From Desulfuromonadales bacterium (GTDB taxonomy: Bacteria > Desulfobacterota > Desulfuromonadia > Geobacterales > Geobacteraceae): a stretch of DNA of 64,000 nucleotides. Numbering within the stretch: position 1 is the stretch's first letter; each line of letters begins with the position of its first letter. Below, in pieces: positions 42,268-62,690 of this stretch. The DNA lies in the NCBI GenBank assembly GCA_003712145.1, contig RHLS01000006.1:47253-111252 (forward strand), given 5' to 3'. The notes under the pieces are model-generated. The model was given only the letters and a program-made list of their open reading frames with translations, made no database searches and was not told the DNA's origin. The translations under genes were made by a program, and so were the position numbers.

Positions 42268-44964
<2,697 letters not shown>

Positions 44965-44986
44965 CCTGAAACGGAGACGATCCGCC

Positions 44987-45787
44987 ATGCTCGACGCCCT
45001 CAGGAACCACTGGCCCGAATACCTCATGGAGGCAGCGGGACTCGGCACCTTCATGGTATCGGCCGGACTCTTCGGGGTCATCCTCTTCCATCCGGCCTCG
45101 GCAATGGTCCAGGCAATCCCCGCCCCGCTGCCGCGCCGGCTCCTCATGGGGCTCGCCATGGGGCTGACCGCCATCGGCATCATTTACTCCCCCTGGGGGC
45201 GGCAGTCGGGGGCCCACCTGAACCCGGCGGTGACCCTCACCTTCACCGCCCTCGGCAAGGTGGCCCCCTGGGATGCGTTCTTTTACATCCTCGCCCAGTT
45301 CGTCGGCGGCATGACAGGGGTCTACCTGGCGCTTGTCCTTCTTGGAGAGCGGTTCGCCCGGCCGCCGGTCTCCTACGTGGCGACCATGCCGGGGAAGTAT
45401 GGCCCCTGGGTCGCCTTCGCCGCCGAGGCGGTCATCACCTTCATCCTCATGACGGTGGTCCTCACCACGAGCAACATCCGCAGGACCTCCCGCTACACCG
45501 GGCTCTTCGCCGGCTGTCTCGTGGCCACCTACATCACCCTCGTGGCACCCATCTCGGGGATGAGCATGAATCCAGCCCGCTCCTTCGCCTCCGCCTTTCC
45601 CGGGGGGCTCTGGGACAACCTCTGGATCTACTTCACGGCGCCCCCCCTCGGGATGCTGGCTGCGGCGGGCTTCTACCGGGGGATTCTGAAGGGGCACGAC
45701 ATCTACTGCGCCAAGCTGAACCACCACACCACGCGGCGCTGCATCTTTCTCGGCTGCCGGTTCGGCGACCTGCTGAAAGGGAAATGA
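44987..45787 (+). CDS. MIP-family channel (aquaporin) with a Cys/His-rich C-terminal tail
   Basis: SGAHLNPAVT and SGMSMNPARS NPA motifs; six TM segments. Confidence 0.93.
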   Translation: MLDALRNHWPEYLMEAAGLGTFMVSAGLFGVILFHPASAMVQAIPAPLPRRLLMGLAMGLTAIGIIYSPWGRQSGAHLNPAVTLTFTALGKVAPWDAFFYILAQFVGGMTGVYLALVLLGERFARPPVSYVATMPGKYGPWVAFAAEAVITFILMTVVLTTSNIRRTSRYTGLFAGCLVATYITLVAPISGMSMNPARSFASAFPGGLWDNLWIYFTAPPLGMLAAAGFYRGILKGHDIYCAKLNHHTTRRCIFLGCRFGDLLKGK

Positions 45788-45788
45788 C

Positions 45789-46802
45789 ATGGTTTCACGG
45801 ATGCGGATAGCGGCAACGGTCCTTGTGCTCACGCTCATGGCTACCCTCCCCGCCTTCGCCGCGCCGAAGGTGGTCGGGGTGGGCGCCATCGGCATGACGG
45901 TCGCGGACATGGAGCGCTCCGTCGCCTTCTACACGGAGGTGCTCGGCTTCCGGACGCTTTCGGACGCCGAGTTCCACGACCCCCGCTTCGACCGGCTCAC
46001 CGGGGTCTTCGGCGCCCGGGTGCGGGTGGTGCGGCTGGCCCTGGGGAAGGAGGAGGTGGAGCTGACCGAATACCTCACCCCCTCATGCCGGCCGGTCCCC
46101 CCCGACTCCCGGAGCAATGACGGGTGGTTCCAGCACATCGCCATCGTGGTGCGGGACATGGACGCCGCCTGGGAGCGGCTGCGCAAACACCGTGTGAAAC
46201 CGATCTCGGTGGCCCCCCAGCGGATCCCCGACTGGAACCGGGCCGCCGCCGGCATCCGCGCCTTCTATTTCCGCGACCCGGACGGCCATCCCCTGGAGCT
46301 TATCTGGTTTCCCGCCGGCAAGGGGGATCCCCGCTGGCAGGAGAAGACGGAGGGCCTCTTCCTCGGCATCGACCACACCGCCATCGCCGTCGGCGACACG
46401 GAACAAAGCCTCGCCTTCTACCGCGACACACTGGGGCTCGCCGTGGCGGGGGAGAGCCTCAACCACGGCATCGAGCAGGAGTACCTCAACCACGTCTTCG
46501 GCTCCCGGGTCCGGATCACCGGCCTCAAGGCGCCTGCTGGTCCGGGGATCGAGTTTCTGGAGTACGTCGTCCCCCGGGACGGCCGCCCCTACCCCGACGA
46601 TGCCCGGCCGTGCGACCTCTTCCACTGGCAGGTGACCCTGCGGGTGGAGGAGGCAGAGGGGTTCCGGGGGAGGCTCGCCGAAAGGCGGACCCGCTTCGTC
46701 TCGCCGGAGGTGGTCGATGTCACGAACCTGGGACTGGAGGGAGCGAAGGCCCTCATGGTGCGCGACCCGGACCGCCACGCATTGCGGCTGGTTGAGCAGT
46801 AG
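45789..46802 (+). CDS. Two-domain VOC (glyoxalase-like) protein with a signal peptide
   Basis: HIAIVV..., YFRDPDGHPLEL, IDHTAIAV, IEFLEY; N-terminal Sec signal (PAFA-A). Confidence 0.85.
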   Translation: MVSRMRIAATVLVLTLMATLPAFAAPKVVGVGAIGMTVADMERSVAFYTEVLGFRTLSDAEFHDPRFDRLTGVFGARVRVVRLALGKEEVELTEYLTPSCRPVPPDSRSNDGWFQHIAIVVRDMDAAWERLRKHRVKPISVAPQRIPDWNRAAAGIRAFYFRDPDGHPLELIWFPAGKGDPRWQEKTEGLFLGIDHTAIAVGDTEQSLAFYRDTLGLAVAGESLNHGIEQEYLNHVFGSRVRITGLKAPAGPGIEFLEYVVPRDGRPYPDDARPCDLFHWQVTLRVEEAEGFRGRLAERRTRFVSPEVVDVTNLGLEGAKALMVRDPDRHALRLVEQ

Positions 46803-46838
46803 CAGCAGACAACACGCCATCCGTTAATGGAGGAAACC

Positions 46839-48404
46839 ATGAACAGCGAGCGTTACGACGTCATCATCATCGGCAGCGGAGCGGGCGGAGGAACCCTGGC
46901 GCACCGCCTGGCCCCCTCCAGCAAGCGGATCCTCCTCCTGGAGCGGGGAGAGTACGTCTCCCGGGAGAAGGACAACTGGAACCCGCGGGCCGTGAACGTG
47001 GAGGGGAAGTACCAGACGAAGGAGCTCTGGCACGACCGGGACGGGAAGGAACTCCACCCCCACACCAACTACTGGGTCGGGGGGAACACCAAGTTCTACG
47101 GGGCGGCCCTCTTCAGGCTCCGGAAGGAGGACTTCGGGGAGCTTCGCCACCACGGCGGCATCTCCCCCGCCTGGCCTATCACCTACGATGAACTGGAGCC
47201 CTACTACACCCAGGCGGAAGAGCTCTATCAGGTCCACGGCCGGCGGGGCGAGGACCCCACGGAGCCGCCGGCGAGCGCCCCCTACCCCTGCCCCCCGGTG
47301 AGCCACGAGCCGCGGATCCAGGAGCTTTCCGACGACTTCGCCCGCCTGGGGCTGAAGCCCTTCCACACGCCGCTGGGGATCCTTCTGGACGAAGGGAACC
47401 CGCGCAGCCGCTGCATCCGCTGCAACACCTGTGACGGCTACCCCTGCCTGGTCTACGCCAAGTCCGACGCCCAGGTGCTGGCCGTGGACGAGGCGATCAG
47501 TCACCCCAACGTGACGCTCATGACCGGCGCCTGCGTGGAGCGGCTGGAGACGGGCCCGTCGGGGCGCGAGGTGACGAAGGTGATCGTCAGTCGCAACGGC
47601 GCCCGGGAGGAGTTCGCGGCCGACATCGTGGTGGTCTCCTGCGGGGCCATCAACTCGGCGGCGCTCCTGCTTCGGTCGGCCAACGACCGGCATCCCAACG
47701 GCCTCGCCAACGGGTCGGACGTGGTGGGGCGCCACTACATGGGGCACGTGAACTCCGTGCTCATGGCCATCTCCAAGTGCCCGAACCCGACGGTCTTCCA
47801 GAAGACGCTGTCCTTCAACGACTTCTACCTCGCCTCAAAGGAGTGGGAATACCCCATGGGGCACATCTCCTTCGTCGGCAAGCTCGACGCCGAGACCCTG
47901 AAGGCCGGCGCTCCGGCCCTCACCCCCGGCTTCACGCTGGAGTACATGGCGAACCACTCCATCGACTTCTGGCTCACCTCGGAGGATCTCCCGGACCCCG
48001 CCAACCGGGTAACCATCGACCGCCAGGGGAACATCGTCCTCGCCTACCAGCCCAACAACGAGGAGGGGCATAAGCGCCTCATCGCCAAGCTGAAGAACTT
48101 GATGCAACAGCAGACTGCGTGCCCCGAGCACGGCCATGAGTGCCACCAGGGGCTCTTCGCCCGTAACCTCTTCGTGGGGCAGCGGATCCCCCTTGCCGGC
48201 GTGGCCCACCAGAACGGCACGGTCCGCTTCGGCACCGACCCGCAGACCTCGGCCCTCGACCGAAACTGCAAGGCCCACGAGGTAGACAACCTCTACGTGG
48301 TGGACGCCAGCTTCTTCCCTTCGTCCGGAGCGGTGAATCCGGCCCTCACCGTCATGGCCAACGCCCTGCGGGTGGGGGACCACCTCCTGGCACGTCTGAA
48401 GTAA
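46839..48404 (+). CDS. GMC-family FAD oxidoreductase
   Basis: IIGSGAGGG, VGGNTKFYGA, CIRCNTCDGYPC, HQNGT, NPALT. Confidence 0.92.
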   Translation: MNSERYDVIIIGSGAGGGTLAHRLAPSSKRILLLERGEYVSREKDNWNPRAVNVEGKYQTKELWHDRDGKELHPHTNYWVGGNTKFYGAALFRLRKEDFGELRHHGGISPAWPITYDELEPYYTQAEELYQVHGRRGEDPTEPPASAPYPCPPVSHEPRIQELSDDFARLGLKPFHTPLGILLDEGNPRSRCIRCNTCDGYPCLVYAKSDAQVLAVDEAISHPNVTLMTGACVERLETGPSGREVTKVIVSRNGAREEFAADIVVVSCGAINSAALLLRSANDRHPNGLANGSDVVGRHYMGHVNSVLMAISKCPNPTVFQKTLSFNDFYLASKEWEYPMGHISFVGKLDAETLKAGAPALTPGFTLEYMANHSIDFWLTSEDLPDPANRVTIDRQGNIVLAYQPNNEEGHKRLIAKLKNLMQQQTACPEHGHECHQGLFARNLFVGQRIPLAGVAHQNGTVRFGTDPQTSALDRNCKAHEVDNLYVVDASFFPSSGAVNPALTVMANALRVGDHLLARLK

Positions 48405-48427
48405 CGTTTGCGAAAGGAGATTCTGCC

Positions 48428-49522
48428 ATGAGCACCATGAAAGCCGTTGCCGTCACCCCCGGCGTTGCCCGGAGCGCCCGCCTGATCCAGGTCCCGGTGC
48501 CGGAACTGTCCGCTGACCAGGTCCGGGTAAAGATGATCCGCGTCGGCATCTGCGGCACCGACCTGGAGATCGACCGGGCCGAGTACGGCCAGGCTCCGCC
48601 GGGCGAGGAGGACCTGATCCTCTGCCACGAGAACTTCGGCAAGGTGGAATCGGTCGGCGCAAACGTGAAGGGGATCGCCCCCGGCGACCACGTGGTCGCC
48701 ATGGTCCGGCGTCCCGACGACTGCCCCAACTGCCGCGCCGGCGAGCAGGACATGTGCATCACCGGCAACTATACGGAGCGGGGGATCAAGGGGCGGCACG
48801 GCTTCCTCTCCGAATTCTACGTGGAGTCCCCCGAGTATCTCATCCCCATCCCCCCTGAACTCAGGGAGGTGGCGGTGCTCCTGGAACCGCTGACCGTGGT
48901 CGAGAAGGGGATCCGCCACGCCTGGGCCGCCCAGGAGCGCATGCGGGCCTGGACGCCGCAGCGGGCCCTGGTTCTGGGCGCCGGCCCCATCGGGATGATG
49001 GCCGCGGTGGTGCTGCGGTTGAGGGGGCTGGAGACGATCGTCTACGCCCGCGACACGAGCCCGGTCATCACGGACCGGGTGGCGGCCATCGGCGCCCGGT
49101 ATATCCCCCAGCTGGACGAGAAGGGGGAGATGATCAACCACATCGGCGAGCTTCCCAAGCAGTGCGGGGGCTTCGATTTCATCCTGGAGGCGACCGGGGC
49201 CGAGCAGATTGCCCTGAGCGCCATGCGGATCATCGGCCTCAACGGCATTCTCTGCCTCACCTCGGTCACCGGGAGCGAGAAACCGATGGAGATCTGCCCC
49301 GGCTGCCTCAATCTCGAACTCGTCCTCGGCAACCGGAGCGTCTTCGGCAGCGTCAACGCCAACAGGGTCGACTTCGAGCAGGGGGTCAGGGACCTGGCCG
49401 CCGCCCGGGAGCGGTGGCCCGGCTGGCTCGAAAACGTCATCACGCGCCGCGTGCCGATCGACCGCTTTCGCGATTCCTTCGAGCGGGAGCCCGGCGACCT
49501 GAAGGTTGTGGTGGAATTGTAG
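48428..49522 (+). CDS. Zn-dependent glucose 1-dehydrogenase-like MDR enzyme
   Basis: GICGTD, CHE, RRPDDCPNC...DMC, VLLEPL, VLGAGPIG, GSVNA; resembles archaeal-type glucose dehydrogenase. Confidence 0.8.
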   Translation: MSTMKAVAVTPGVARSARLIQVPVPELSADQVRVKMIRVGICGTDLEIDRAEYGQAPPGEEDLILCHENFGKVESVGANVKGIAPGDHVVAMVRRPDDCPNCRAGEQDMCITGNYTERGIKGRHGFLSEFYVESPEYLIPIPPELREVAVLLEPLTVVEKGIRHAWAAQERMRAWTPQRALVLGAGPIGMMAAVVLRLRGLETIVYARDTSPVITDRVAAIGARYIPQLDEKGEMINHIGELPKQCGGFDFILEATGAEQIALSAMRIIGLNGILCLTSVTGSEKPMEICPGCLNLELVLGNRSVFGSVNANRVDFEQGVRDLAAARERWPGWLENVITRRVPIDRFRDSFEREPGDLKVVVEL

Positions 49523-49548
49523 CGAGAGAACGCAAAGGAGATGCACCA

Positions 49549-50079
49549 ATGGCCAGTCCCACGGTCATTGACGAAAATATCCGGCAGCTGCAGCAGGGGC
49601 TCGACCTGATCGCCCGGCTCACCGACCCGCTGTACCAGACCACCGTCGGCCCCTGCTTCAATACCGGCGTCGGAATGCACTTTCGCCACATCCTCGACTA
49701 CTACACCTGCTTTCTTGCCGGCATGGAGAGGATCATCGACTACGACGCCCGGGAACGCAACGAGCTCCTTGCCCGGGAACGCAGCCGCGCCATGGGAAAG
49801 ATCCGGAGAACCATCGACGAGCTGGACGTGCTCCGGTTTCAGTCAGGGCTCCTGGAAAGCCGCGTACTGGTCAGGGACAACGAGCAGGACGACGGCACGG
49901 GGAAACCTTCCCCCTGTCATTCCACCGTCGGACGGGAGCTGAAGTTCCTCCTCTCCCACACGGTGCACCACTTCGCCATCATCGCGATGATGCTTCGGAT
50001 CCAGGGATTCGAGCCCTTCGAGGAGTTCGGCATCGCCGCGTCAACCATCGAGTGCCGACGGCGCTATGCCGTGAAATAA
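49549..50079 (+). CDS. DinB-superfamily protein
   Basis: His triad: GMHFRHILDYY ... FLLSHTVHHFAII; AAGGAG RBS. Confidence 0.85.
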   Translation: MASPTVIDENIRQLQQGLDLIARLTDPLYQTTVGPCFNTGVGMHFRHILDYYTCFLAGMERIIDYDARERNELLARERSRAMGKIRRTIDELDVLRFQSGLLESRVLVRDNEQDDGTGKPSPCHSTVGRELKFLLSHTVHHFAIIAMMLRIQGFEPFEEFGIAASTIECRRRYAVK

Positions 50080-50090
50080 AGATAAAGAAA

Positions 50091-50232
50091 GAGGCTCCTG
50101 CAAAACGTAATGAGGAGGTCGGGATGCTAGGCGCAAGTGAGCGAGGAAGCGAGGCGTACCCATTGGTACGTTGAGCTTTCGAGAGAGCGGCAACAACGCA
50201 GACCGGCCCCGCAATAGTTTTGCAGGAGCCTC
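50091..50232. mobile_element. MITE E2, 142 bp
   Basis: Perfect 16-bp TIR GAGGCTCCTGCAAAAC/GTTTTGCAGGAGCCTC; flanking 4-bp direct repeat GAAA; central GAGGCGTACC-catt-GGTACGTTGAG hairpin. Confidence 0.8.
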
Positions 50233-50245
50233 GAAAGGATCTCCT

Positions 50246-50641
50246 ATGCTCAGTAAAGGACTAAAGACCATCAGTTGGATTCTGCGGATCGTGGCGGCCG
50301 TCATCCTCCTCCAGACCCTCTTCTTCAAGTTCACCGGCGCCCCGGAATCGGTCTACATCTTCTCCACCCTGGGGATGGAGCCCTGGGGCCGGATCGGCTC
50401 GGGGGTGGTGGAACTGGTGGCCTCCATCCTGCTCCTCATGCCCCGCACGGTGGCGGTCGGCGCCATCATCGCCCTCGGCACCATGGCGGGGGCCATCGGC
50501 GCCCACCTGACCAAGCTCGGGATCGAGGTGATGGGCGACGGCGGCACCCTCTTCATCCTCGCCCTGGTCACCTTCGCAAGCTGCGCGGTGGTGCTCTTCC
50601 TCCACCGCCGGGAGATCCCGGTGATCGGCGGCAAGCTGTAG
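50246..50641 (+). CDS. DoxX-family membrane protein
   Basis: LQTLFFKFTGAPES...GRIGSGVVEL...GAIGAHLT; four TM segments. Confidence 0.88.
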   Translation: MLSKGLKTISWILRIVAAVILLQTLFFKFTGAPESVYIFSTLGMEPWGRIGSGVVELVASILLLMPRTVAVGAIIALGTMAGAIGAHLTKLGIEVMGDGGTLFILALVTFASCAVVLFLHRREIPVIGGKL

Positions 50642-50672
50642 CCGCCACAACATCGAAACAGGAGGGACAACA

Positions 50673-50912
50673 ATGCACTTTCTCTGGTTTATCCTGATCG
50701 GAATCGCTGCCGGCTGGCTGGCCGGCCAGATCATGAGGGGTGGCGGATTCGGCCTCGTCGGAGACCTCGTCGTCGGTGTCATCGGGGCACTGTTCGGCGG
50801 TTTCCTGTTTGGTCTTCTCGGCCTCTCCGCCTTCGGCCTGTTGGGCCAGCTCGTCACCGCAACGGTCGGCGCAATCGTCCTGCTCTTTCTGCTCCGCCTG
50901 ATCAAGCGCTGA
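50673..50912 (+). CDS. GlsB/YeaQ/YmgE (transglycosylase-associated) membrane protein
   Basis: IGIAAGWLA...GDLVVGVIGALFGG...GAIVLL. Confidence 0.9.
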   Translation: MHFLWFILIGIAAGWLAGQIMRGGGFGLVGDLVVGVIGALFGGFLFGLLGLSAFGLLGQLVTATVGAIVLLFLLRLIKR

Positions 50913-50940
50913 ACCGGCCGGGGAGCCGAAGGAGTCGACC

Positions 50941-52779
50941 ATGGACGGTTCTTCTCAATCGACAGACATCTTCCGCATCGCCAACCCCTTCCGGGACCCC
51001 CTTCGCCGCGGCGCCTTCGCCCTGGCGGCAGGATTGGCGGAGCACCTCTTCGGCCTGCGGCGCTGCGCGGGACTCTACGGGCGGATAACTTCAGGAGATA
51101 AGGACGAAGGCTTCCCGGCCCGGGCGCTGGAAATCCTCGGGATTGAATGCGCCGCCCACCCTGCGGAGCTGGCCCAGGTGCCGGGCAGCGGCCCCGTGGT
51201 CGTGGTGGCCAACCACCCCTTCGGCGCCGTGGAGGGAATCGTTCTTGCCCGGCTGCTCCGCCAGATCCGTCCCGACGTGAAGTTTCTCGCCAACTACCTC
51301 CTGGGCCGCCTCCCCGAGATGCGCCACCTCTTCATCGGCGTCGATCCCTTCGGCGGACGCGGAGCAGGGGGACGAAACGTCGGGCCTCTCCGCGAAGCGA
51401 TCCGCTGGCTCCGGGAAGGGGGAATGCTCGTCGTCTTCCCGGCCGGCGAGGTCTCGCACCTCTCCATCCGGCGGCGGGAGGTGTCCGACCCCCGCTGGAG
51501 CGAGACCCTGGCCCGCATCGTCCGCCATGGCGGCGCTGCGGCGGTGCCGGTCCATTTCGCCGGGCGCAACTCTCCCCTCTTCCATGGCGCCGGGCTCGTT
51601 CACCCTCTCCTGCGCACCGCCCTTCTCCCACGGGAGCTCCTCAACAAGCGGGACTCGACGATCCGGGTGCGGGTCGGCACCCCGGTCCCGAACCGCAAGC
51701 TCTGCGGCTTCGCCACCGACCGGGAGATGGTCGCTTATCTCCGTTTACGGACCTACCTCCTCGGCAGCGCCAGCGAAACCGAAACCGGCGCGAAGCAGAC
51801 CGCCTCCCTCTCCGGATTCGGGCCCCTCGCCATCCCCGTCGAGCCGGAGCTTCTCGCGGCCGAGATCGGAAACCTTCCGGACGACCACTTCCTCGTCGAG
51901 AGCGGCCCCTTCCGGGTGGTCGTGGCGGAAGCAGGCCGGATCCCGGCAACCCTGCGGGAGATCGGGAGGCTGCGGGAGATTACCTTCCGCCAAGTGGGTG
52001 AAGGTACCGGCCGTCCCTCGGACCTGGACCGGTTCGACGCCCACTATCGCCACCTCTTCATCTGGAATCGGGAGAAATGCGAGCTGGTGGGGGCCTACCG
52101 GCTGGGAGAGACCGACACGATCATCCAGCAGTTTGGCATGGAAGGACTCTACACCAGCACCCTCTTCACCTACCGCGTCGATTTCCTCGACCGGATCGGC
52201 CCTGCCCTTGAGGTGGGGAGATCCTTCGTCCGACCCGAGTACCAGAAATCGTACACCCCTCTGCTGCTCCTCTGGAAAGGGATCGGCCGCTTCGTGGCCG
52301 CAAATCCCCGCTACCGGGTCCTCTTCGGGGCGGTCAGCATCAGCCGTGAGTACAGCGACCTCTCCCGGCAGCTCATCGTCAGTACTCTCCAGCAGGGGCG
52401 CCTCATCCCCGAGCTGGCCCGGATGGTCACCGCCCGGACCCCCCTGAGACTCAAGCCCCTCAGGGTCCGGGGTTGCGAACCGGCCGGCGACTGGCCCGCG
52501 GCCCTCGACCTGGAGGACGTTGCCGCCATGGTCGCGGACATCGAGGTGGATCATAAGGGGGTACCGGTCCTCCTGCGGCACTACGTCAATCTGGGGGGGA
52601 AATTTCTGGGCTTCAACATCGACCGGGAATTCAGCGACGTCCTTGACGGCCTCGTCCTCGTGGACCTCCTGGAGACTGAGGGAAAGACCCTGGAGCGGTA
52701 CATGGGGAAGGACGGGGCAAGGGCGTTTCTCGCCTGGCACTCCCGGGAGGGGAATGAGGCCGTGCGGCGGAGCGCGTAG
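50941..52779 (+). CDS. Bifunctional acyltransferase (PlsC-like plus GNAT/OlsB-like), OlsF-like aminolipid synthase
   Basis: N-domain ANHPFGAVEG and FPAGEVS; C-domain EIGRLREITFR.VGEG...DLDRFD, LEVGRSFV..EYQK. Confidence 0.75.
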   Translation: MDGSSQSTDIFRIANPFRDPLRRGAFALAAGLAEHLFGLRRCAGLYGRITSGDKDEGFPARALEILGIECAAHPAELAQVPGSGPVVVVANHPFGAVEGIVLARLLRQIRPDVKFLANYLLGRLPEMRHLFIGVDPFGGRGAGGRNVGPLREAIRWLREGGMLVVFPAGEVSHLSIRRREVSDPRWSETLARIVRHGGAAAVPVHFAGRNSPLFHGAGLVHPLLRTALLPRELLNKRDSTIRVRVGTPVPNRKLCGFATDREMVAYLRLRTYLLGSASETETGAKQTASLSGFGPLAIPVEPELLAAEIGNLPDDHFLVESGPFRVVVAEAGRIPATLREIGRLREITFRQVGEGTGRPSDLDRFDAHYRHLFIWNREKCELVGAYRLGETDTIIQQFGMEGLYTSTLFTYRVDFLDRIGPALEVGRSFVRPEYQKSYTPLLLLWKGIGRFVAANPRYRVLFGAVSISREYSDLSRQLIVSTLQQGRLIPELARMVTARTPLRLKPLRVRGCEPAGDWPAALDLEDVAAMVADIEVDHKGVPVLLRHYVNLGGKFLGFNIDREFSDVLDGLVLVDLLETEGKTLERYMGKDGARAFLAWHSREGNEAVRRSA

Positions 52780-52923
52780 GGATCAACGCCGGATATTCCA
52801 GGAAGGGGACATGACATCTCATGCCGGGAAGAGGAGGAGCCCCAAAGGGCCGTCCGTGTGACGGCTCACAACCGTCAAGCCTTCCCTCTTTGAGGGAGCG
52901 TTATGACATCAGGAGGTAAGAAC

Positions 52924-55059
52924 ATGAAGCACGAACCGAAAGGGCAGTTTGCGCAGGCCGCTGATCGACAAGGAAACACTCCAACGGCGAAGCCGGTCGA
53001 CCGGCATTTATTCCCGAAGAAGGTGGTCGGCACCCTGGCCGCTTTCCTGTTGTGTTGCGGAGTCGCTTCGGCTAATCAGGTTCAGGGGAACAACCCCACC
53101 AAGCTGCGCCAGTTCATCGACCAGCAGGTCAGCGGCATCCAGAAGCTGATGGTTCCGGCGAAGGATGCGGACCTCCCGCAGCCGCGGCTTCCCAATGGAA
53201 TGCCCGACCCGTTCTTCCAAACGACCGAGGCGAAGCGTTACCTCGGCAAACAACTCTTCCACGACCCGGTCCGGATGGTCAGAATTCGGCCGGAGTTCGG
53301 TGGCATCCCCGCCACCGCGCAGACCGCCTCCTGCGCCACCTGCCACCAGGGCGAATCGGCGTCGAAGGCCGGCACGCTGTTCAACTTCGCCGCCGGCGGC
53401 GAGGGGCGGCACTACACGGACGCGGAGGGAAACTTCATTCCGCGCCGGCGGCCCAACATGGCCATCCTCCCGATCCTGCGGCAGACCCCTCTCTTCCCCG
53501 GTGACGCACTGGTGGACGAGATCCCCACCCTCACGGACATCTACGAATTCGCGGTGGGGAGCCCGGCCCGGGGCCGCAAGCTGCCGGACCCTGGTCGGCT
53601 GCTGCGAACCGGTCGACTCGACGCCCTGGACAGCGTCGCGCGCAATGCGCCAGGCTGTATCGGCGCCGCCTTCAACAACCGCCTCCTGATGGGAGGGTTC
53701 GCCGGAGAGCCCGACGCATCGCCCGGGGGCCTCAATCCGTTCGGGCATCCAGCCCAGGAAAACATCGCGCTCCTGCTCCTCGATGCTCACCGGATGCTGG
53801 AAGCCCAGTCAGCTGAACTCCAGAAGTACGCGACCTATCGGAAGCTCTTCCGGGATGCGTTCCCCGAGGAGGCCGCCCAGGCCGACGCCGTGGGCGACTT
53901 GAACCTCCTGATCAACGACATGAACGTCTTTCGGGCGACGGCGACCTTCCTGCGAACCACGGTCACCCGGGACACCCCCTGGGACCGGTTCCTGGCCGGA
54001 GATAATCGTGCGCTGACGCTCAAGCAGCGCCGGGGCGCCAAACTCTTTTTCACGCCGGCGACAGAGGGTGGAGCCGGTTGCTACACCTGCCACAGCGGCC
54101 CGATGCTCAACAAACAAGTAAACGACCCCGACGTGGCCGGCGTCGGTCAGTTCGTGGAAGAGAACTTCCACAACCTCGGGCTCACCGACCACCCGCTCCA
54201 GGCCTTGAACAAAGTAGCGAGAAACGATCCCAACTTCCGCGATGACGGAAGGAGGGAAATCACGGGCCGTGACAGCGACGCCTTCAAGTTCCGCACGCTG
54301 ACGCTGCGGCAGCTCAAGGACGCCCGGTTCTTTTTCCATAACGGCTCGTTCACGAGCGTGAAGGCTGTGGTGCGGTATTTCAACGCCGGTGTGCCACAGG
54401 ACGCAGAGGCCGCTGCGGCAGGGACCCTCTCGCCCCGCTTCACGCACCCGCGCGGACCGGGCTCGCCTGCCGGCCTGGGCCTGAGCGACGCTCAGGTGGA
54501 CGATCTCGCCGACTTCCTCGAGAACGGCCTCTACGATCCCGCGTTCGTGCACTACAATCCCAAATCACCGACGAGGATGTTCCAGTTGAGCCCACCGGAC
54601 TTCCTCTATTCGGTCCACCGTCCGAATCTCGCGGCGCTGGGCGCCATTGACGGCCGGCCCCTCAGCGGCCTCCCGCAGGACAACAACGACGCCCTCTCCC
54701 GGCGCGACATGGGACTTGAGTTCCTGGACGTGACGGGGCAGATGGACAAGGCACTGAGCAACTCCACCCGCAGGGGCAACGGTCGGAGCCAGATAGACGA
54801 CTACAGGTTCACCAACAGCAGTTCGTCGATGGTGGACACGCACCTTCTCGTGGTCGTCAAAGGCCTTTCGCAGCAAAGCCGGCTGGACAACGCCAGCGGG
54901 ACCACGAGCGCCGGCGATCCCTATCTCCGCGTGTTCCTCCCCAATGGTGTCCTTCTTCCCGGCCAGAGCATCGACGTGAAGCTGTTCTTCAAGCAGCAGC
55001 ACTACGCGCCACCGCCGACATACTCGCTGACGCTCCTCTCGGGACAGGGGAACCCATAA
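52924..55059 (+). CDS. Dihaem cytochrome c peroxidase/MauG-superfamily protein with large inserts and a C-terminal extension
   Basis: LGKQLFHD, CATCH, CYTCH, FRTLTLRQ...FFHNGS; signal peptide; AGGAGG RBS. Confidence 0.85.
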   Translation: MKHEPKGQFAQAADRQGNTPTAKPVDRHLFPKKVVGTLAAFLLCCGVASANQVQGNNPTKLRQFIDQQVSGIQKLMVPAKDADLPQPRLPNGMPDPFFQTTEAKRYLGKQLFHDPVRMVRIRPEFGGIPATAQTASCATCHQGESASKAGTLFNFAAGGEGRHYTDAEGNFIPRRRPNMAILPILRQTPLFPGDALVDEIPTLTDIYEFAVGSPARGRKLPDPGRLLRTGRLDALDSVARNAPGCIGAAFNNRLLMGGFAGEPDASPGGLNPFGHPAQENIALLLLDAHRMLEAQSAELQKYATYRKLFRDAFPEEAAQADAVGDLNLLINDMNVFRATATFLRTTVTRDTPWDRFLAGDNRALTLKQRRGAKLFFTPATEGGAGCYTCHSGPMLNKQVNDPDVAGVGQFVEENFHNLGLTDHPLQALNKVARNDPNFRDDGRREITGRDSDAFKFRTLTLRQLKDARFFFHNGSFTSVKAVVRYFNAGVPQDAEAAAAGTLSPRFTHPRGPGSPAGLGLSDAQVDDLADFLENGLYDPAFVHYNPKSPTRMFQLSPPDFLYSVHRPNLAALGAIDGRPLSGLPQDNNDALSRRDMGLEFLDVTGQMDKALSNSTRRGNGRSQIDDYRFTNSSSSMVDTHLLVVVKGLSQQSRLDNASGTTSAGDPYLRVFLPNGVLLPGQSIDVKLFFKQQHYAPPPTYSLTLLSGQGNP

Positions 55060-55078
55060 CCGGGCGATATTTTAACCT

Positions 55079-55192
55079 CATTAGCACTGATCCTCCGCCA
55101 CCAAGATCTTTCCCCCTCCCTTGACGGGAGGGGGCTTGGGGGTGGGTAATGTTTCAATCGGCTGAATTTATGGCGCTTTCACCCCCACCCTC
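55079..55192. repeat. Truncated inverted copy of the 15858-16035 element
   Basis: TTAGCACT..CCGCCACCAAG..TCCCCCTCCCTTGACGGGAGGGGG..GGGGGTGGGTAATGTTTCAA..GCTGAAT..CTTTCACCCCCACCCT aligns with the reverse complement of about 15915-16032. Confidence 0.75.
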
Positions 55193-55265
55193 CGCCCTGG
55201 GGGACAGGAACCCGGGGGACATGTTATTTTCCTCTCCACGCAACACTGAAACACGGAGGTTCACC

Positions 55266-55718
55266 ATGAAAACGCTGTCATCACTCATGCTCGTCGGCCT
55301 CATGCTCGTCATCGCCGCCCCCATCGCCTGGGGGGCCAAGGGCGAGATCAACACCACCCTCATCGGCAAGAAGGCGATCAAGGGGTACGACCCGGTCGCC
55401 TATTTCACCGACGGGAAGCCGGTGGAGGGGAAGAAGGAGTTCACCTACGAATGGAAGGGGGCCAAGTGGTTCTTCGCAAGCGCGGAGCACCGCGACCAGT
55501 TCAAGGCCGACCCGGACAAGTACGCGCCCCGGTATGGCGGCTACTGCGCCTATGCGGTGGCCATGGGGAAGACCGCCGACATTGACCCAAAGGCCTGGAA
55601 GATCGTCGACGGCAAGCTCTACCTGAACTATGACCAGGACATCCAGAAGAAGTGGCAGGCGGACATCCCCGGATTCATCGAGAAGGCCAACAGGAACTGG
55701 CCCGGCGTCCTGAAGTAG
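55266..55718 (+). CDS. Periplasmic YHS-domain protein (Cys form of a family with Sec variants)
   Basis: Signal peptide; GYDPVAYF, WFFASAEHRDQFKADPDKYAPRYGGYCAYAV. Confidence 0.85.
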   Translation: MKTLSSLMLVGLMLVIAAPIAWGAKGEINTTLIGKKAIKGYDPVAYFTDGKPVEGKKEFTYEWKGAKWFFASAEHRDQFKADPDKYAPRYGGYCAYAVAMGKTADIDPKAWKIVDGKLYLNYDQDIQKKWQADIPGFIEKANRNWPGVLK

Positions 55719-55721
55719 CCC

Positions 55722-57371
55722 TTGGAGTTCGCCCGCTGGTTCATGGAGCTCGCCCGCGGGGCCATGGGGATGCCTCTCCTCCAGGGGGCCATCGCCGCCC
55801 TCTGCACCTTCGTCCTGGAAGACCCGACCACCGTCGGGAGCGGCCTTCTGGTGGCGGCGGGAAAGATGTCGTTCACCACCGCCTTCGTGGGGCTCACCCT
55901 CGGGATTGCCGGCGGGGATTTCGGCCTCTACCTCCTGGGGCGGTTCGCCCAGGGACGGGTGGAACGGTGGGGTATCATCGACCGGGAGCGGCTGGAGCGG
56001 GCCTCTGCCTGGTTCGGACGGAACCTGATTTCGGCGGTCCTCTCGTCCCGCTTTCTGCCGGGGATGCGGCTCCCCACCTACGTGGCGGCGGGCATTCTCA
56101 AGGTGCCGGCGGGGAGGTTCCTCGCCGTGGCCGTGGCCGCGTCGGTCGCCTGGACCCTCATCCTCCTCTCCCTCACCGTCCGCCTCGGGGGGGCGGCCCT
56201 GGAGCGGGCGGGGCGGATGAAGCTCCCCTTGGGACTCGCCCTCGTGGTGCTCATCGCCTTCGGCCAGTGGCTGGGGGCGCGGCGGCGCCGACGGTTCGAA
56301 CGGGAGGGTGCGGAGCCGGTCACGTCGGGCTTTGAATTCTGGCCCCCGTGGCTCTTCTACCTGCCGGTCGTCCCCTGGTGGCTCTGGCTCTCCCTGCGGC
56401 ACCGGGGGGTGCTCCTGCCGACGGCGGCCAACCCCTCCATCCATGCCGGGGGATTCATCGGGGAGTCGAAGGGGGCGATCCTGAGCCTCGTGCCCCGGGA
56501 ACAGCGGCGGTGGGTAGCCCCATGGGTGGCCTGGCGGAAGGAAGCCGGTGCCTCCATCGACGCTGCCTGCGCCGAAGCAGCCGCCATCATGGAACGGAAC
56601 GCCCTCGTCTTCCCCCTCGTGGCAAAGCCCGACGTGGGACAGCGGGGAGCGGGGGTAAGGCCCCTTCAGGACAGTCGGCAACTCAGGGAATACCTGGAGG
56701 CGTTTCCGGCCGGCGCCCGGTTGATCCTCCAGACGCTCGTTCCCTTTCCCCACGAGGCGGGGATCCTCTGGTACCGGCTGCCGGGGGAGGATCGGGGGAG
56801 GATCTTCTCCGTCACCCGGAAGGAATTCCCCGCAGTGACGGGCGACGGGCAACGGACCCTGCGGGATCTGATTCTGGCGGACCCCCGGGCCCGGCGCCTG
56901 CGGCGGGTCTACCTCCGACGCCACCGGGAGCGGCAGGAGGCGATTCCGGCGGCCGGAGAGCGGGTGCCCCTGGTCTTTGCCGGCAACCACTGTCAGGGGG
57001 CGATCTTCCGCAACGGCGCGGAGCTGGCATCACCAGAGCTTGCCGCCCGGATCGACGAAATCGCCCGCTCCATTCCGGAGTTCCACTTCGGCCGCTTCGA
57101 CCTCCGCTTCCGGTCCGAGGAAGAGCTTTCGCGGGGCGAAGGGTTCGTCATCGTGGAGATCAACGGCGCCGGTGCCGAGGCGACTCACATCTGGGATGCC
57201 CGGACCCGCCTCGGCGATGCCTACGCCGTGCTCTTCGCGCAGTTCCGCATCCTCTTCGAGATCGGCGCCCGGAACCGGGAACGGGGGTTTCGCCCAGTCA
57301 CCGTTTGGCAGTTTCTCGGTGACCTCTTAGCCTATCGGCGACTGGCACAGGGGTATCCGGAAACCTGGTAA
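55722..57371 (+). CDS. DedA/VTT membrane domain fused to an ATP-grasp ligase domain
   Basis: DedA: [30 protein letters not shown]-grasp: [29 protein letters not shown]. Confidence 0.8.
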
Positions 57372-57391
57372 AGCACAGAAGGAGAAATGAC

Positions 57392-57913
57392 ATGAAACCG
57401 CTGAAAGTGCTTATGGCATCACTGGTACTCTTCGCCCTGGCTGCGGCCGCCTCGGGAGAAAAGGGGAAATCGGCCACCATCAAACTCTACTCGGCACAAA
57501 AGAAGGGGTACATCATGAGTGAAAAGGTCATCAAGAGCGACGCCGAATGGCGCAAGCAGCTGACCCCCGAGCAGTACCACATCACCCGCGAGAAGGGAAC
57601 CGAACGGGCCTTCTCGGGCCAGTACGCGAACCATCACGATAAGGGGATCTACCAGTGCGTCTGCTGCGACAACGACCTCTTCAGCTCGGAACACAAGTTC
57701 GAATCGGGGACCGGCTGGCCCAGCTTCTGGCAGCCGATCGCCCCGGAGAACATTACAACCAAGCCCGACCGCAGCCTCTTCATGACCCGGACGGAGGTCC
57801 TCTGCAGCCGCTGCGACGCCCACCTGGGCCATGTCTTTGACGACGGACCGAAGCCGACCGGACTGCGCTATTGCATGAACTCCGCAGCCCTCAAGTTCAG
57901 GAAAGCCGATTGA
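57392..57913 (+). CDS. msrB: Peptide methionine-(R)-sulfoxide reductase, exported
   Basis: [35 protein letters not shown]; signal peptide. Confidence 0.96.
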
Positions 57914-57950
57914 CCGGAAATTCCGGCACACCGGCGAACAGGATCGCGCC

Positions 57951-59225
57951 ATGAAACGTGTCGTTATCGTCGGCGGCGGCTTCGGCGGACTGAACGCCGC
58001 GAAGGTGCTGGGGAGCAGGCCGGGGGTCGAGGTGACCCTCATCGACCGGAAGAACCACCACCTCTTCCAGCCCCTCCTCTACCAGGTGGCGACGGCGGGG
58101 CTTTCCCCGGCCGACATCGCCGCGCCGATCCGGGTGCTCCTGGCTCGGCACCGCAACGTCCACGTCCACCTGGGGGAGGTACGCGGTGTCGACCTCGCCG
58201 GGCGCACCGTCATGACCAGCACGGACACCTACCCCTACGATTACCTCGTCCTCGCCTGCGGCGCCCAGCACGCCTACTTCGGCCACGAGGAGTGGGAGGA
58301 ATCCGCTCCGGGGCTGAAGACCCTGGAACAGGCAACGGAGATCCGGCGCCGGGTCCTCTCGGCCTTCGAGGAGGCGGAGCTGGAAAAGGACCCCCAGAGG
58401 CAGCGGAAGCTCCTTACCTTCGCCGTCGTCGGCGGGGGAGCAACGGGGGTCGAGCTGGCCGGCGCCATCGGGGAGATGAGCCGGTACACCCTGATCCGGG
58501 ACTTCCGGAGCATCGATCCGACCATGAGCCGGGTGATCCTGATCGAGGCGGGACCGCGGATACTCTCCGCCTTTGCGGAAAAGCTCTCCGCCGACGCTGT
58601 CCGCTACCTGGAAGAGCTCGGCGTCGAGGTGATGACCTCCCGGGCGGTAACGCGGATCGACGCGGAGGGGGTGGAGCTGGGGGGGGAGTTCATCCCGGCT
58701 GCAACGGTGCTCTGGGGAGCCGGGGTGAAGGCATCTTCCCTCGGGACGGAACTTGGGGTGGAAACCGACCGCCAGGGTCGGGTCATCGTGCAACCGGACC
58801 TGAGCGTGCCAGGGTATCCGGAACTCTTCGTCATCGGCGATCAGGCCAACTGTCAAAACGAAAAAGGGGAGCCGCTCCCCGGCCTCGGCCCCGTCGCGCT
58901 TCAGCAGGGGCGTCACGCGGCCCGGAACATCCTTCGTGAACTGGCAGGCAAGCTACGCCGCCCCTTCCGTTACCTCGACAAGGGTCACATGGCAACCATC
59001 GGCAGAAGCCGGGCCATTGGCGAGATCCGCCGGATACGCTTCTCCGGCTTCATCGCCTGGCTCGCCTGGCTCTTCGTCCACATCTATTTCCTGGCGGGCT
59101 TCCGCAACCGCTTCTTCGTCGTCCTCCAGTGGGGATGGTCGTATCTCTCCTTCGGCCGGGGAGCCCGCCTGATCACGAGTCGGGAATGGCGCTCCTATCC
59201 CGGCAGCACAGGAGGCGACAGATGA
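57951..59225 (+). CDS. ndh: Type II NADH:quinone oxidoreductase-like flavoprotein
   Basis: VIVGGGFGG, FQPLLYQVAT, VVGGGATGVE, FVIGD, F.YLDKG.MATIGR. Confidence 0.9.
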   Translation: MKRVVIVGGGFGGLNAAKVLGSRPGVEVTLIDRKNHHLFQPLLYQVATAGLSPADIAAPIRVLLARHRNVHVHLGEVRGVDLAGRTVMTSTDTYPYDYLVLACGAQHAYFGHEEWEESAPGLKTLEQATEIRRRVLSAFEEAELEKDPQRQRKLLTFAVVGGGATGVELAGAIGEMSRYTLIRDFRSIDPTMSRVILIEAGPRILSAFAEKLSADAVRYLEELGVEVMTSRAVTRIDAEGVELGGEFIPAATVLWGAGVKASSLGTELGVETDRQGRVIVQPDLSVPGYPELFVIGDQANCQNEKGEPLPGLGPVALQQGRHAARNILRELAGKLRRPFRYLDKGHMATIGRSRAIGEIRRIRFSGFIAWLAWLFVHIYFLAGFRNRFFVVLQWGWSYLSFGRGARLITSREWRSYPGSTGGDR

Positions 59226-59297
59226 CAGTGTGGTGGAGCGATAAAACATCTATTCATTTTTCTGAATATATGGTACTGTTTTACAGGAGGTGAAACC

Positions 59298-59450
59298 ATG
59301 AATGAACTCTTGATGGTGGGAGGTTTTCTGGCTTTCTGGATTGTCCTCAACAAAGTGGTCCTTCCCCGGCTCGGGGTAGAGACGTGAATGGCTGATGCCT
59401 GTCCTTCCGGGAAGAAGGACAAGAAACAAACCGACAAAAAAGGGGCGTGA
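59298..59450 (+). CDS. Candidate 50-aa membrane-anchored selenoprotein (UxxxxC)
   Basis: AGGAGG RBS; MNELLMVGGFLAFWIVLNKVVLPRLGVET-UGA-MADACPSGKKDKKQTDKKGA-stop; SECIS-like hairpin after the UGA. Confidence 0.6.
59400..59421 (+). promoter_or_regulatory. Putative bacterial SECIS element
   Basis: TGTCCTTC-CGGGAA-GAAGGACA: 8-bp stem starting 12 nt after the UGA (59385-59387), with a G-rich apical loop. Confidence 0.55.
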
Positions 59451-59469
59451 GTTTCACGCCCCTTTTTTG
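59435..59469. terminator. Bidirectional intrinsic terminator
   Basis: CAAAAAAGGGGCGTGA-GTT-TCACGCCCCTTTTTTG between convergent genes. Confidence 0.85.
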
Positions 59470-59491
59470 TGTCATCATGCTTTACACACGG

Positions 59492-59902
59492 TCACCGCGG
59501 ACCCCTTGCCTCCTCAATCACCAGCAGGTACCCATCCGGATCGAAGCACCAGAACTCCTTGACCCCGTAAGGTTTATGCTCCAGCGGGTAGAGAATCTCC
59601 AACTCCTCTTCCAGTATCGCCTCGTAGATCTCCATGATGTCATCCACGGTGACATGGATCGTCATCCCCACCCCTTTGGGGTATTCCTCGAAACGCTCCC
59701 CCAGGATCGGATGGGCGCGCACTACAGCCCCCTCCTCCACAAAGATGATCTCCCAGCCGTCATGCCGCAGGATCAGGTGCTCGGGCGCTCCCCGGGCCGT
59801 CAGCGCCCGCATGACGTCCAGCTCCAGGATGCCGGCATAGAACGCCTCGGTGGTGCTCAGGTCGGCGACCGTCAACTGGATGGAGACGCCAGCCCTACTC
59901 AC
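59492..59902 (-). CDS. VOC-family protein (single domain)
   Basis: FYAGIL, KPYGVKEFWCFDPDGYLL. Confidence 0.85.
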   Translation of the reverse strand: MSRAGVSIQLTVADLSTTEAFYAGILELDVMRALTARGAPEHLILRHDGWEIIFVEEGAVVRAHPILGERFEEYPKGVGMTIHVTVDDIMEIYEAILEEELEILYPLEHKPYGVKEFWCFDPDGYLLVIEEARGPR

Positions 59903-60623
59903 CTCCGAACCACTTCAGACTGTAACGGGAAAGGACACTCAGATAGTTGGTGAAGATCATGAACCCGACGATGACGAGGAATACACCGGTGACGATCTCG
60001 AAAATACGGATGTACTTCTTGAACCGGTTGAAAACGACAAGGAACTGGTGCATGGCCAGGGAAGAGAGAAAAAAAGGAATTGCCAACCCCATGGAGTAGG
60101 TAAAGAGAAGAAGGATGCCTTGGGTGACCGTCTCCTCCGTAGCCGCCACCATGAGAATGGAGGCGAGAATCGGGCCGATGCAGGGGGTCCAGCCGGCGGC
60201 AAAGGCGAGCCCCACGAGGAAGCTTCCCAGGTATCCGGCCGGCTTGCGATGCACGGTGACCCGCTTCTCGCCCAGCAGCAGGTGGATGGGGACAAGCCCC
60301 GAGACATGGATGCCGAAGATGATGATCAGTATCCCTCCCACCTTGCGTATGGCGTTCATGTGCTCATGGAGAAAACCGCCGATGAAGGTCGCCGATGCGC
60401 CGAGGAGCACGAAAACGGTGGTGAATCCCGCGATGAAGAGGAGCGTATGGACAATGGTCTGTTGCCGTACTTTGTGGCTCGGGTGCTCCGCCTGGAGATC
60501 GGAAAAGGAGAGCCCCGTGATGTAGGTGATGAAGGAGGGGATCAGCGGCAGCACGCAGGGAGAGAGAAACGAAAGAAGCCCCGCGACGAACGCGCCGAAA
60601 AAGGTGACGTTGGAAGATTCCAT
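59895..60623 (-). CDS. ccdA: Cytochrome c biogenesis thiol-disulfide transporter CcdA
   Basis: FLSPCVLPLIP and GWTPCIGPIL motifs. Confidence 0.93.
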   Translation of the reverse strand: MESSNVTFFGAFVAGLLSFLSPCVLPLIPSFITYITGLSFSDLQAEHPSHKVRQQTIVHTLLFIAGFTTVFVLLGASATFIGGFLHEHMNAIRKVGGILIIIFGIHVSGLVPIHLLLGEKRVTVHRKPAGYLGSFLVGLAFAAGWTPCIGPILASILMVAATEETVTQGILLLFTYSMGLAIPFFLSSLAMHQFLVVFNRFKKYIRIFEIVTGVFLVIVGFMIFTNYLSVLSRYSLKWFGGE

Positions 60624-60642
60624 GAATGACCTCGGTCTCTTA

Positions 60643-60822
60643 GGGACTCGGAACAAACAAATATACCGTATTACATCTCATCTTCAGGCCATCTTCGCCG
60701 CTCCCTCAATTGCAAAATCCTCGACGTAGCCCTGCTACGCCTGCGGCTTTGCTCAATCAGGAGCGACAAATCTGTCCCAAATCTGAGCGTAAAACTTGGT
60801 ATATCAGTTTATTCCGAGTCCC
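60643..60822. mobile_element. MITE E3, 180 bp, inserted at the tlpA stop codon
   Basis: 25-bp TIR with 22/25 matches (GGGACTCGGAACAAACAAATATACC); TTA direct repeats at 60640-42 and 60823-25; central CGTAGC-cct-GCTACG hairpin. Confidence 0.8.
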
Positions 60823-61325
60823 TTACTTGTTCATCGCCTCGTTAAGGAAGCCGATTACCTCGGGCTGGTCCCACTCCATGGCGCCGACGACTTTCTTGAG
60901 TATAACACCGCTCTTGCTGATGACAAAGGTTTCCGGCACGCCGGTGAGCCCGTAGAGCTTCCCTGCCCGCTTGTCCCCATCCAGAAGCGCCGGGAGCGTG
61001 AACCCGCTCTTGCGGAAGAACTCCTCGACAGCCACCTTCCCCCCATCATCGATGGAGACGCAGAGCATCCGGAACGGCTTGCCGGCCATGGCGGCGTTGA
61101 GACGCATCATGGAGGGAATCTCCTGCCGACAGGGAGGGCACCAGGTGGCCCAGAAGTTCAGGAGCACCACCTGCCCCCTGAGCTCTGAAAGCTTCACCAC
61201 CTCTCCGTTCAGGGTGTTAAGGGTAAAGTCCGGGGCCGGGTTTCCCTCAAGGGCCGGTTTCGTTTCCTTGGAGCAGCCGAGCAGGGCCACGAGCATGAGC
61301 AGCGGCAGCAGGCGGATAATCGTTC

Positions 61326-61329
<4 letters not shown>
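60823..61329 (-). CDS. TlpA/ResA-family thiol-disulfide oxidoreductase lipoprotein
   Basis: Lipobox LLGC; LNFWATWCPPC; VPETF. Confidence 0.92.

Positions 61330-62690
<1,361 letters not shown>

Follow-up and report, generated by a model that had tools for sequence, protein, structure and literature searches.

A DedA membrane domain fused to an ATP-grasp ligase: a candidate lipid head-group ligase linked by gene context to aminolipid synthesis

What reaction could be carried out by a polypeptide that joins a lipid transporter to a ligase? This question is raised by a gene found at positions 55722 to 57371, on the plus strand, of a 64,000-nucleotide stretch of DNA from a Desulfuromonadales bacterium of the family Geobacteraceae (GenBank assembly GCA_003712145.1, contig RHLS01000006.1, positions 47,253 to 111,252), referred to below as the window. 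A preliminary description of this DNA had read the product as a DedA flippase domain fused to an ATP-grasp ligase, and the present analysis bears this out, both domains being recovered by Pfam, profile or Foldseek searches within a single open reading frame. As judged from sequence comparison, the fusion is widespread and catalytically intact. It has no characterised member, in agreement with the preliminary description: none is described in the literature searched (DedA, ATP-grasp, aminolipid, and TANGO2 with ornithine lipid), including the review PMC12971839. The function proposed here from sequence and from a structure model, with about even confidence, is that of a lipid head-group ligase that faces the cytoplasm and is fused to a domain binding or flipping lipids, which would make this protein an analogue of MprF.

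The fused protein and its predicted active site

The gene consists of one uninterrupted open reading frame of 549 codons, starting at a TTG and closed by a stop, according to the list of open reading frames, the translation and the homologues. An alternative ATG at position 55743, which is the annotated start of the database twin, would yield a protein of 542 residues. A clear Shine-Dalgarno sequence is found at neither codon. The TTG at position 55722 is a plausible true start, since the conserved WF of the homologues is encoded upstream of the ATG in an alignment of 30 of them, and since the TTG sits 3 nt past the stop of the preceding YHS gene. This very short gap also suggests a translational coupling of the two genes.

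The possibility that the fusion is a sequencing artefact can be discarded because the same architecture is found in many homologues. More than 3,273 full-length relatives, 49-100% identical, were retrieved with a word-indexed search. An exhaustive search in which the query was limited to the ligase domain returned 2,922 cluster representatives, and relatives are encoded by at least 590 species representatives. The carriers belong to the Hydrogenedentota, Sumerlaeota, Acidobacteriota, Planctomycetota, Verrucomicrobiota, Gemmatimonadota, Bdellovibrionota, Burkholderiales and Alphaproteobacteria, with a few Bacteroidales. When the best 150 of the 50%-identity cluster representatives were sorted by architecture, 76 were found to combine DedA with the ligase and 47 to consist of the ligase alone. 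An alpha/beta-hydrolase precedes the ligase in 17 others and an unassigned N-terminal extension in 8, in both cases with or without DedA; the last two proteins combine TANGO2, hydrolase, DedA and ligase, and DinB and ligase, respectively.

The N-terminal part of the protein (residues ~18-190, positions 55773 to 56291, plus strand) is identified as a DedA/VTT membrane domain by Pfam, by fold match and by alignment with E. coli YqjA, with E33, D34, R110 and R116 as conserved charged residues. The Pfam family VTT_dom (PF09335) covers residues 39-151 with 53.8 bits, above its gathering cut-off of 33.9, and E. coli YohD is a fold match of model residues 18-189 (TM 0.68 by hit). To our knowledge, no characterised DedA protein carries an enzyme domain; we also know of no DedA protein with a solved structure or with an enzyme-coupled cargo, the role of these proteins as flippases being only now recognised. 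Like the DedA transporters YqjA, YghB and YohD of E. coli and UptA and PetA of B. subtilis, the window protein has the VTT domain with its predicted re-entrant-loop fold, the Asp and two Arg residues, and a C-terminus predicted to be cytoplasmic. Its invariant D34, R110 and R116 align with D51, R130 and R136 of YqjA, which are reported to be required for function and to line a lipid site (10.64898/2026.09.20.752871). It differs from YqjA in the absence, throughout this family, of the 13-residue segment that contains E39; E33 adjoins D34 in the window protein and, from the alignment, may stand in place of E39. The C-terminus of YqjA was located in the cytoplasm by cysteine accessibility (SCAM), and a C-terminal domain that uses ATP fits this orientation.

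The C-terminal part (residues ~228-520, positions 56403 to 57281, plus strand) is assigned to the ATP-grasp ligases by profile comparison with the PDB, by Foldseek and VIA comparisons of the model and by the invariance of its key residues. No Pfam family matches residues 205-549 even at E = 10, and the NCBIfam matches over the ligase region are limited to weak ones with cyanophycin synthetases. A profile built from 30 homologues detects CphA2-type ATP-grasp chains in the PDB with E = 6e-6, then Ddl, CPS and L-amino-acid ligases. In the AlphaFold model (pLDDT 86), residues 210-514 match the G domain of the cyanophycin synthetase CphA1 (Foldseek E = 7e-9, VIA Z 16.2), and further fold matches are found with the ligase domain of GshAB, LysX/ArgX, Ddl/VanA and RimK; the VIA Z to LysX, Ddl, RimK and CPS is 12-14.

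The catalytic residues can be followed in the alignments. The invariant K302 (56625-56627, plus strand as for the residues below), which is part of the motif VAKPDxGQRGxGV, aligns with K144 of DdlB and with the segment VKPVAGHKGIGV of CphA2. R458 (57093-57095) and D460 (57099-57101) are also invariant, and E479 (57156-57158) and N481 (57162-57164) are kept in at least 90% of the sequences. With E345 and the glycine-rich loop, these residues form a set that is invariant or at least 90% conserved among 30 fusion proteins and again in a second alignment of 36 sequences, of which 29 are stand-alone ligases. The VEINGA of the window protein aligns with IEINAA in CphA2, and the Asp segment aligns likewise with that of CphA2. 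On these alignments the ATP-grasp domain is predicted to be catalytically intact, all nucleotide- and Mg-binding residues being present, and its earlier reading as a ligase is upheld.

In one full-length homologue (P0073, L001:8001-9647), IALKGAGGE replaces the family sequence VEINGAGAE, with loss of the Mg-binding Glu and Asn; this protein may be an inactive variant or may result from an assembly error. The absence of the E-x-N motif from P0073 would suit a different reading, in which the ATP-grasp domain has no catalytic activity and, as a sensor of nucleotides, only regulates the DedA transporter. About one third of the family is not fused to DedA, so that the two domains can work apart, which would also be compatible with a sensor. 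Across the 30 and 36 diverse sequences, however, the catalytic residues (Lys, Arg, Asp, Glu and Asn) vary little or not at all, as does the glycine-rich loop, and a sensor without catalytic activity is considered very improbable.

The closest sequence and fold matches, the G domain of CphA1/CphA2 and the ATP-grasp domain of GshAB, share with the window protein the Lys, the R-x-D, the E-x-N and a GDG..T..EL insertion. The identity is nevertheless ~15-18%, and the window protein has neither the N and M domains of CphA nor the GshA domain; unlike these enzymes, it is predicted to be anchored in the membrane and its N-terminal substrate domain is shrunk to ~80 residues. A cyanophycin synthetase was rejected, the NCBIfam score being 18.5 bits for a cut-off of 877 with an alignment confined to the G-domain region. 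A housekeeping Ddl was rejected as well: PF07478, the model of the Ddl C-terminal family, misses this gene, yet scores 200 bits with a canonical Ddl encoded on a different contig. Several stand-alone members of the family (P0274, P0277, P0290, P0312 and others) are labelled D-alanine--D-alanine ligase by the NCBI. This name is probably an over-annotation, because the Pfam model of Ddl misses the family and because the carrier genomes have a Ddl of their own. In the G domain of CphA, in GshAB, in Ddl and in LysX, a C-terminal carboxylate is phosphorylated and an amino acid or an amine is then added.

The two domains are connected by a segment (positions 56277 to 56402, plus strand), delimited by alignments, hydropathy and the model, in which an Arg-rich cytoplasmic stretch, RRRRR, follows the last DedA helix and precedes residues 204-227. 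The preliminary description had seen here an amphipathic linker. The segment is real and conserved: a 12-residue motif (residues 204-215, positions 56331-56366) is invariant or nearly so, with F204, E205, W207, F212, Y213 and P215 unchanged in all 30 fusion proteins of the alignment, and it is also kept by the stand-alone homologues of the 36-sequence alignment. Its nature has to be revised. Residues 204-227 have a Kyte-Doolittle mean of 0.48 and a Wimley-White interfacial sum of -11.3 kcal/mol, and two short helices (209-213 and 216-226) are seen in the model. These properties describe an aromatic interfacial anchor rather than a transmembrane helix, a simple linker or a classical amphipathic one, and this predicted anchor belongs to the ligase module since the stand-alone ligases retain it. 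A hydropathy scan finds no hydrophobic window in residues 228-549, and the topology predicted in this way places the ligase at the surface of the membrane, on its cytoplasmic side.

Linkage to aminolipid synthesis genes

The genes surrounding the ligase were mapped by tblastn with reference proteins on 83 loci in addition to the window. Neighbours were counted within 5 kb of the ligase in the 49 loci whose flanks each measure 5 kb or more, and their identities were confirmed by Pfam on representatives. An OlsB-like N-acyltransferase of the GNAT type (PF13444) is present in 31 of these 49 loci (63%), the N-terminal domain of OlsF in 8 and a PlsC-type O-acyltransferase in 11. Other recurrent neighbours are a DinB-like protein (25 loci), an alpha/beta-hydrolase (24), YHS and DoxX proteins (20 each) and a TANGO2-like protein (15). 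The co-clustered TANGO2-like protein, of Ntn type, and alpha/beta-hydrolase could act as an amidase and an esterase in turnover. MauG-like and MsrB genes occur in 2 loci each.

This linkage does not depend on one arrangement of the genes. At least six gene orders are observed between lineages. The ligase gene can be followed by GNAT and PlsC, or by OlsF; GNAT, PlsC and hydrolase can precede it; GNAT can lie divergently, on the opposite strand, 5' of hydrolase and ligase; OlsF can lie convergently, on the opposite strand, after the ligase; and in the window the order is OlsF, MauG, YHS and ligase. In a maximum-likelihood tree of the ligase domain, linkage to GNAT is found on both sides of the midpoint root, and the ligase of the window forms a group (96/92 support) with proteins of Acidobacteriota, all of them encoded next to a fused OlsF-type synthase. 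A PF13444 protein is encoded elsewhere in the genome in 9 of 10 genomes in which no GNAT gene is nearby. The link to a nearby acyltransferase, which the preliminary description had proposed for the window, is thus confirmed as an OlsB/OlsF-type gene within 5 kb in 63% of the loci with complete flanks, across many phyla and several gene orders. On the basis of gene context, the ligase gene appears firmly tied to aminolipid synthesis.

The presence of PlsC-type genes in the clusters may also direct attention to ordinary glycerophospholipids: the carboxyl of phosphatidylserine would be amidated, or an amino acid would be esterified to phosphatidylglycerol in a tRNA-independent manner, like the product of MprF, before flipping by DedA. 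The layout of a synthase joined to a flippase is the same as that of MprF, and ATP-grasp enzymes of the VanA type are able to form esters. The conserved neighbour is however specifically the PF13444 N-acyltransferase of aminolipid pathways, and neither pssA nor pgsA was noticed in the loci, although no systematic search for them was made. A glycerophospholipid substrate is judged improbable.

Several observations weigh against an aminolipid head-group ligase. A GNAT gene is lacking within 5 kb in 18 of the 49 loci, and none of the best 150 representatives has the ligase fused to GNAT or PlsC. In the window itself, the synthase gene is 3 kb away from the ligase, with a non-conserved di-haem gene in between. 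Among the partners, DinB, YHS and DoxX point to thiol or redox chemistry, for which a lipid model offers no explanation, and flipping may not be obligatory, about one third of the ligases having no fused DedA. Finally, the Acetobacteraceae present a different situation. In this family, DedA and ATP-grasp are encoded by separate, overlapping genes located just 5' of bacA/uppP (undecaprenyl-diphosphatase), and no aminolipid, DinB, TANGO2, YHS or DoxX gene is found within 8 kb of the ligase. The order DedA, ATP-grasp, BacA/UppP occurs in 6 of 12 short loci; among the 10 long loci it occurs in 9, and the gap there is often as short as 40-55 nt. The co-occurrence of the ligase with OlsB-like genes was tried as a test in this family and proved uninformative: OlsB-like genes are present in 195 of 201 genomes, PF13444 being found in 100 of the 102 ligase-positive and in 95 of the 99 ligase-negative ones.

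This last gene order raises the prospect that the pair acts on polyprenyl-phosphate-linked envelope precursors, a UptA-like transporter of undecaprenyl phosphate (Und-P) or lipid II working with a Ddl-like ligase on a lipid-linked carboxylate, for example that of the lipid II stem peptide. The ligase fold is indeed close to Ddl, DedA members are established as Und-P flippases in the reports cited in 10.64898/2026.09.20.752871, and the best NCBIfam match of the DedA part is UptA (NF052604, E = 1.9e-12). The score of 47.7 bits is however far under the equivalog cut-off of 250, and membership in UptA was rejected. Moreover, the bacA-linked ligases form a single clade in the tree and bacA is within 10 kb in only 1 of 84 other loci, the partners elsewhere being enzymes of acyl lipids (GNAT, PlsC and alpha/beta-hydrolase). 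Besides a Ddl of its own, the genome of the window encodes four further DedA paralogues. A role in polyprenyl-phosphate-linked precursors is therefore considered unlikely.

The module in the window

In the window, the recurrent partners lie upstream of the ligase gene and on the same strand. A small DinB-like protein of 176 residues (positions 49549 to 50079) is recognised by tblastn homologues and by a weak Pfam match (DinB, E = 0.0035); Pfam detects no sulfoxide-synthase catalytic domain in it. A DoxX-like membrane protein (50171 to 50641; Pfam DoxX/DoxX_2) follows. In E. coli K-12 (3247773-3252010), the DedA gene yqjA lies ~2 kb 5' of yqjF, of the DoxX family, and of yqjG, encoding a glutathionyl-hydroquinone reductase; DedA and DoxX are likewise paired in the module, a resemblance that may be a coincidence.

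The gene at positions 50941 to 52779 encodes, according to Pfam, an OlsF-like bifunctional aminolipid synthase with an N-terminal PF19576 O-acyltransferase and a C-terminal PF13444 N-acyltransferase. The NCBIfam score for OlsF is 394.7 bits against an equivalog cut-off of 620, with the two-domain layout present, so that the product is assigned from its sequence as a relative of OlsF. A MauG/MbnH-like di-haem peroxidase of 718 residues (52903 to 55059; Pfam and NCBIfam) is encoded between the synthase and the YHS genes. As suggested by the comparison of loci, it is a lineage-specific insertion outside the conserved module. The YHS-domain gene (55149 to 55718), of a (seleno)protein family (Pfam YHS; NCBIfam NF041384, 178 bits), is a recurrent member with direct BLAST homologues in 33 other loci. 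Twenty nucleotides 3' of the ligase gene lies MsrB (57392 to 57913; Pfam SelR). No terminator-like site is found on the plus strand from 57371 to 59434, and MsrB is probably co-transcribed with the ligase in the window without being a conserved partner; both it and the MauG-like protein, each found in 2 of the 49 loci, were rejected as members of the module.

The redox proteins of this cluster would fit a pathway in which the ligase makes a soluble small molecule, a dipeptide or a thiol conjugate, that DedA exports, with DinB, YHS, DoxX and MsrB serving the response to redox stress in the envelope. DinB-like, YHS (Cys/Sec family) and DoxX proteins recur with the ligase, genes for MsrB and NDH-2 come after it in the window, and there are examples of soluble ATP-grasp ligases that make dipeptides and are paired with DinB-containing enzymes (PMC13674229). 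These thiohistidine-dipeptide enzymes are however RimK-like and stand beside full sulfoxide synthases, in a paper that mentions no membrane association. They were rejected as a model, given that the DinB-like protein of the window is a small stand-alone protein with a weak match to DinB. A soluble product is further at odds with the membrane anchor still carried by unfused ligases, with the fusions of the ligase to lipase-type alpha/beta-hydrolases, with the scarcity of MsrB among the loci and with the fact that the DedA proteins of known substrate move lipids, according to the reports cited in 10.64898/2026.09.20.752871. The export of a soluble conjugate seems improbable as well.

The module appears to be located on an accessory island, since the ligase is rare in this lineage and since synteny is absent until position ~59243. 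The ligase profile matches 2 of 251 high-quality genomes of the class, and no match is found in 9 other genomes of the genus or in 45 of the family. No DNA syntenic with positions ~44000-59243 of the window is found in the genomes of the same genus, and synteny with them resumes at ~59243 with 74-80% identity. The island was probably acquired by horizontal transfer, and the nearest relatives of its ligase come from Acidobacteriota. A strong bidirectional terminator-like hairpin with a 17-bp stem (59434-59470) closes the run of co-directional genes.

Two further elements were observed in the region. The 254 bp between the DoxX and OlsF-like genes (50659-50912) have 85-86% identical copies in two genomes of the same genus that lack the rest of the cluster; this segment has no Rfam match and may be a mobile or regulatory element. 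A sequence of ~187 bp (60639-60825), with 90-94% identical copies on another contig of the genome and in several relatives, has no Rfam match at the gathering threshold and looks like a dispersed repeat. The Rfam scan of positions 49000-61500 returned nothing.

Proposed function and significance

The function favoured here, a head-group ligase facing the cytoplasm and joined to a lipid-handling DedA domain, can be described as follows. The protein would be an enzyme of the inner membrane with two working parts, the DedA domain and the ATP-grasp domain, the latter being held by the anchor (residues 204-227) at the surface of the bilayer, on the cytoplasmic side. The ATP-grasp domain would convert a carboxylate and ATP into an acyl-phosphate, which would then be joined to an amine, or possibly to a hydroxyl or a thiol. 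The likeliest carboxylate would be the alpha-carboxyl left free on the acyloxyacyl amino-acid lipid that the co-clustered OlsF-like synthase produces, and the head group of the resulting aminolipid would be extended or amidated. The DedA domain would bind the lipid, present it to the ligase, or move the substrate or the product between leaflets, or combine these tasks. We infer an aminolipid substrate because the carboxyl of such a lipid is free and lies at the surface of the membrane, and because the synthase genes are conserved neighbours; a second amino acid may be the group added, and ligation may be coupled to translocation, as the preliminary description had put forward.

The likeness to MprF would reside in a single polypeptide that combines a head-group synthase facing the cytoplasm with a multi-pass domain moving its product, both proteins being expected to alter the charge or chemistry of the membrane surface. 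It is an architectural likeness only, with no homology to MprF, Pfam finding VTT_dom alone in the whole protein. MprF uses aminoacyl-tRNA, a GNAT-like synthase and a flippase fold of its own, whereas the window protein would rely on the acyl-phosphate chemistry of an ATP-grasp domain and on DedA/VTT; the membrane domain comes first in the window protein and last in MprF. A second comparison can be made with the tailoring of ornithine lipids by OlsC, OlsD, OlsE and OlsG. The window gene likewise clusters with aminolipid synthase genes, but tailoring by the known enzymes is hydroxylation or methylation, and the window protein is a predicted ligase.

Aminolipids, ornithine lipids among them, occur widely in bacterial membranes and have links with stress resistance and host interaction; E. 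coli makes none. The chemistry proposed here has a counterpart in Gluconobacter cerinus, where an orphan taurine transferase that depends on ATP forms an amide bond at the carboxyl of ornithine, a reaction that an ATP-grasp enzyme could perform. According to a review of March 2026, this ATP-dependent transfer of taurine to the carboxyl of ornithine lipid is the only known ATP-dependent modification of an aminolipid head group and its gene is still unknown; neither DedA nor ATP-grasp is mentioned there (PMC12971839). The ligase is carried by 102 of the 201 Acetobacteraceae genomes sampled, and one Acetobacteraceae copy was found in food-fermentation metagenomes. Its sequence and its carriage in this family are compatible with a candidate for this transfer. 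A role as a general serine ligase of flavolipin, the serine-glycine lipid, was rejected: the ligase is present in 5 of the 201 Bacteroidales genomes sampled, an order in which such lipids are common, and the flanks of the three Bacteroidales loci inspected contain no aminolipid genes.

A more specific proposal, possible but tentative, is that of a machine that ligates and flips aminolipids. The ATP-grasp domain would amidate the head-group carboxyl of ornithine-type lipids, with taurine in acetic acid bacteria and with other amines elsewhere, and the DedA domain would deliver the lipid to the outer leaflet. This conserved fusion, found within aminolipid clusters, represents one candidate for two problems at once, the orphan transfer of taurine and the cargo of DedA proteins. 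If the proposal is true, the enzyme that forms cerilipin, an orphan for 50 years, would be identified, a new class of aminolipids with extended head groups would exist in hundreds of species, and a DedA protein would for the first time have a defined, enzyme-coupled cargo. The module would also allow the TANGO2-like proteins encoded in these clusters to be approached in bacteria; their human relative causes a metabolic disease.

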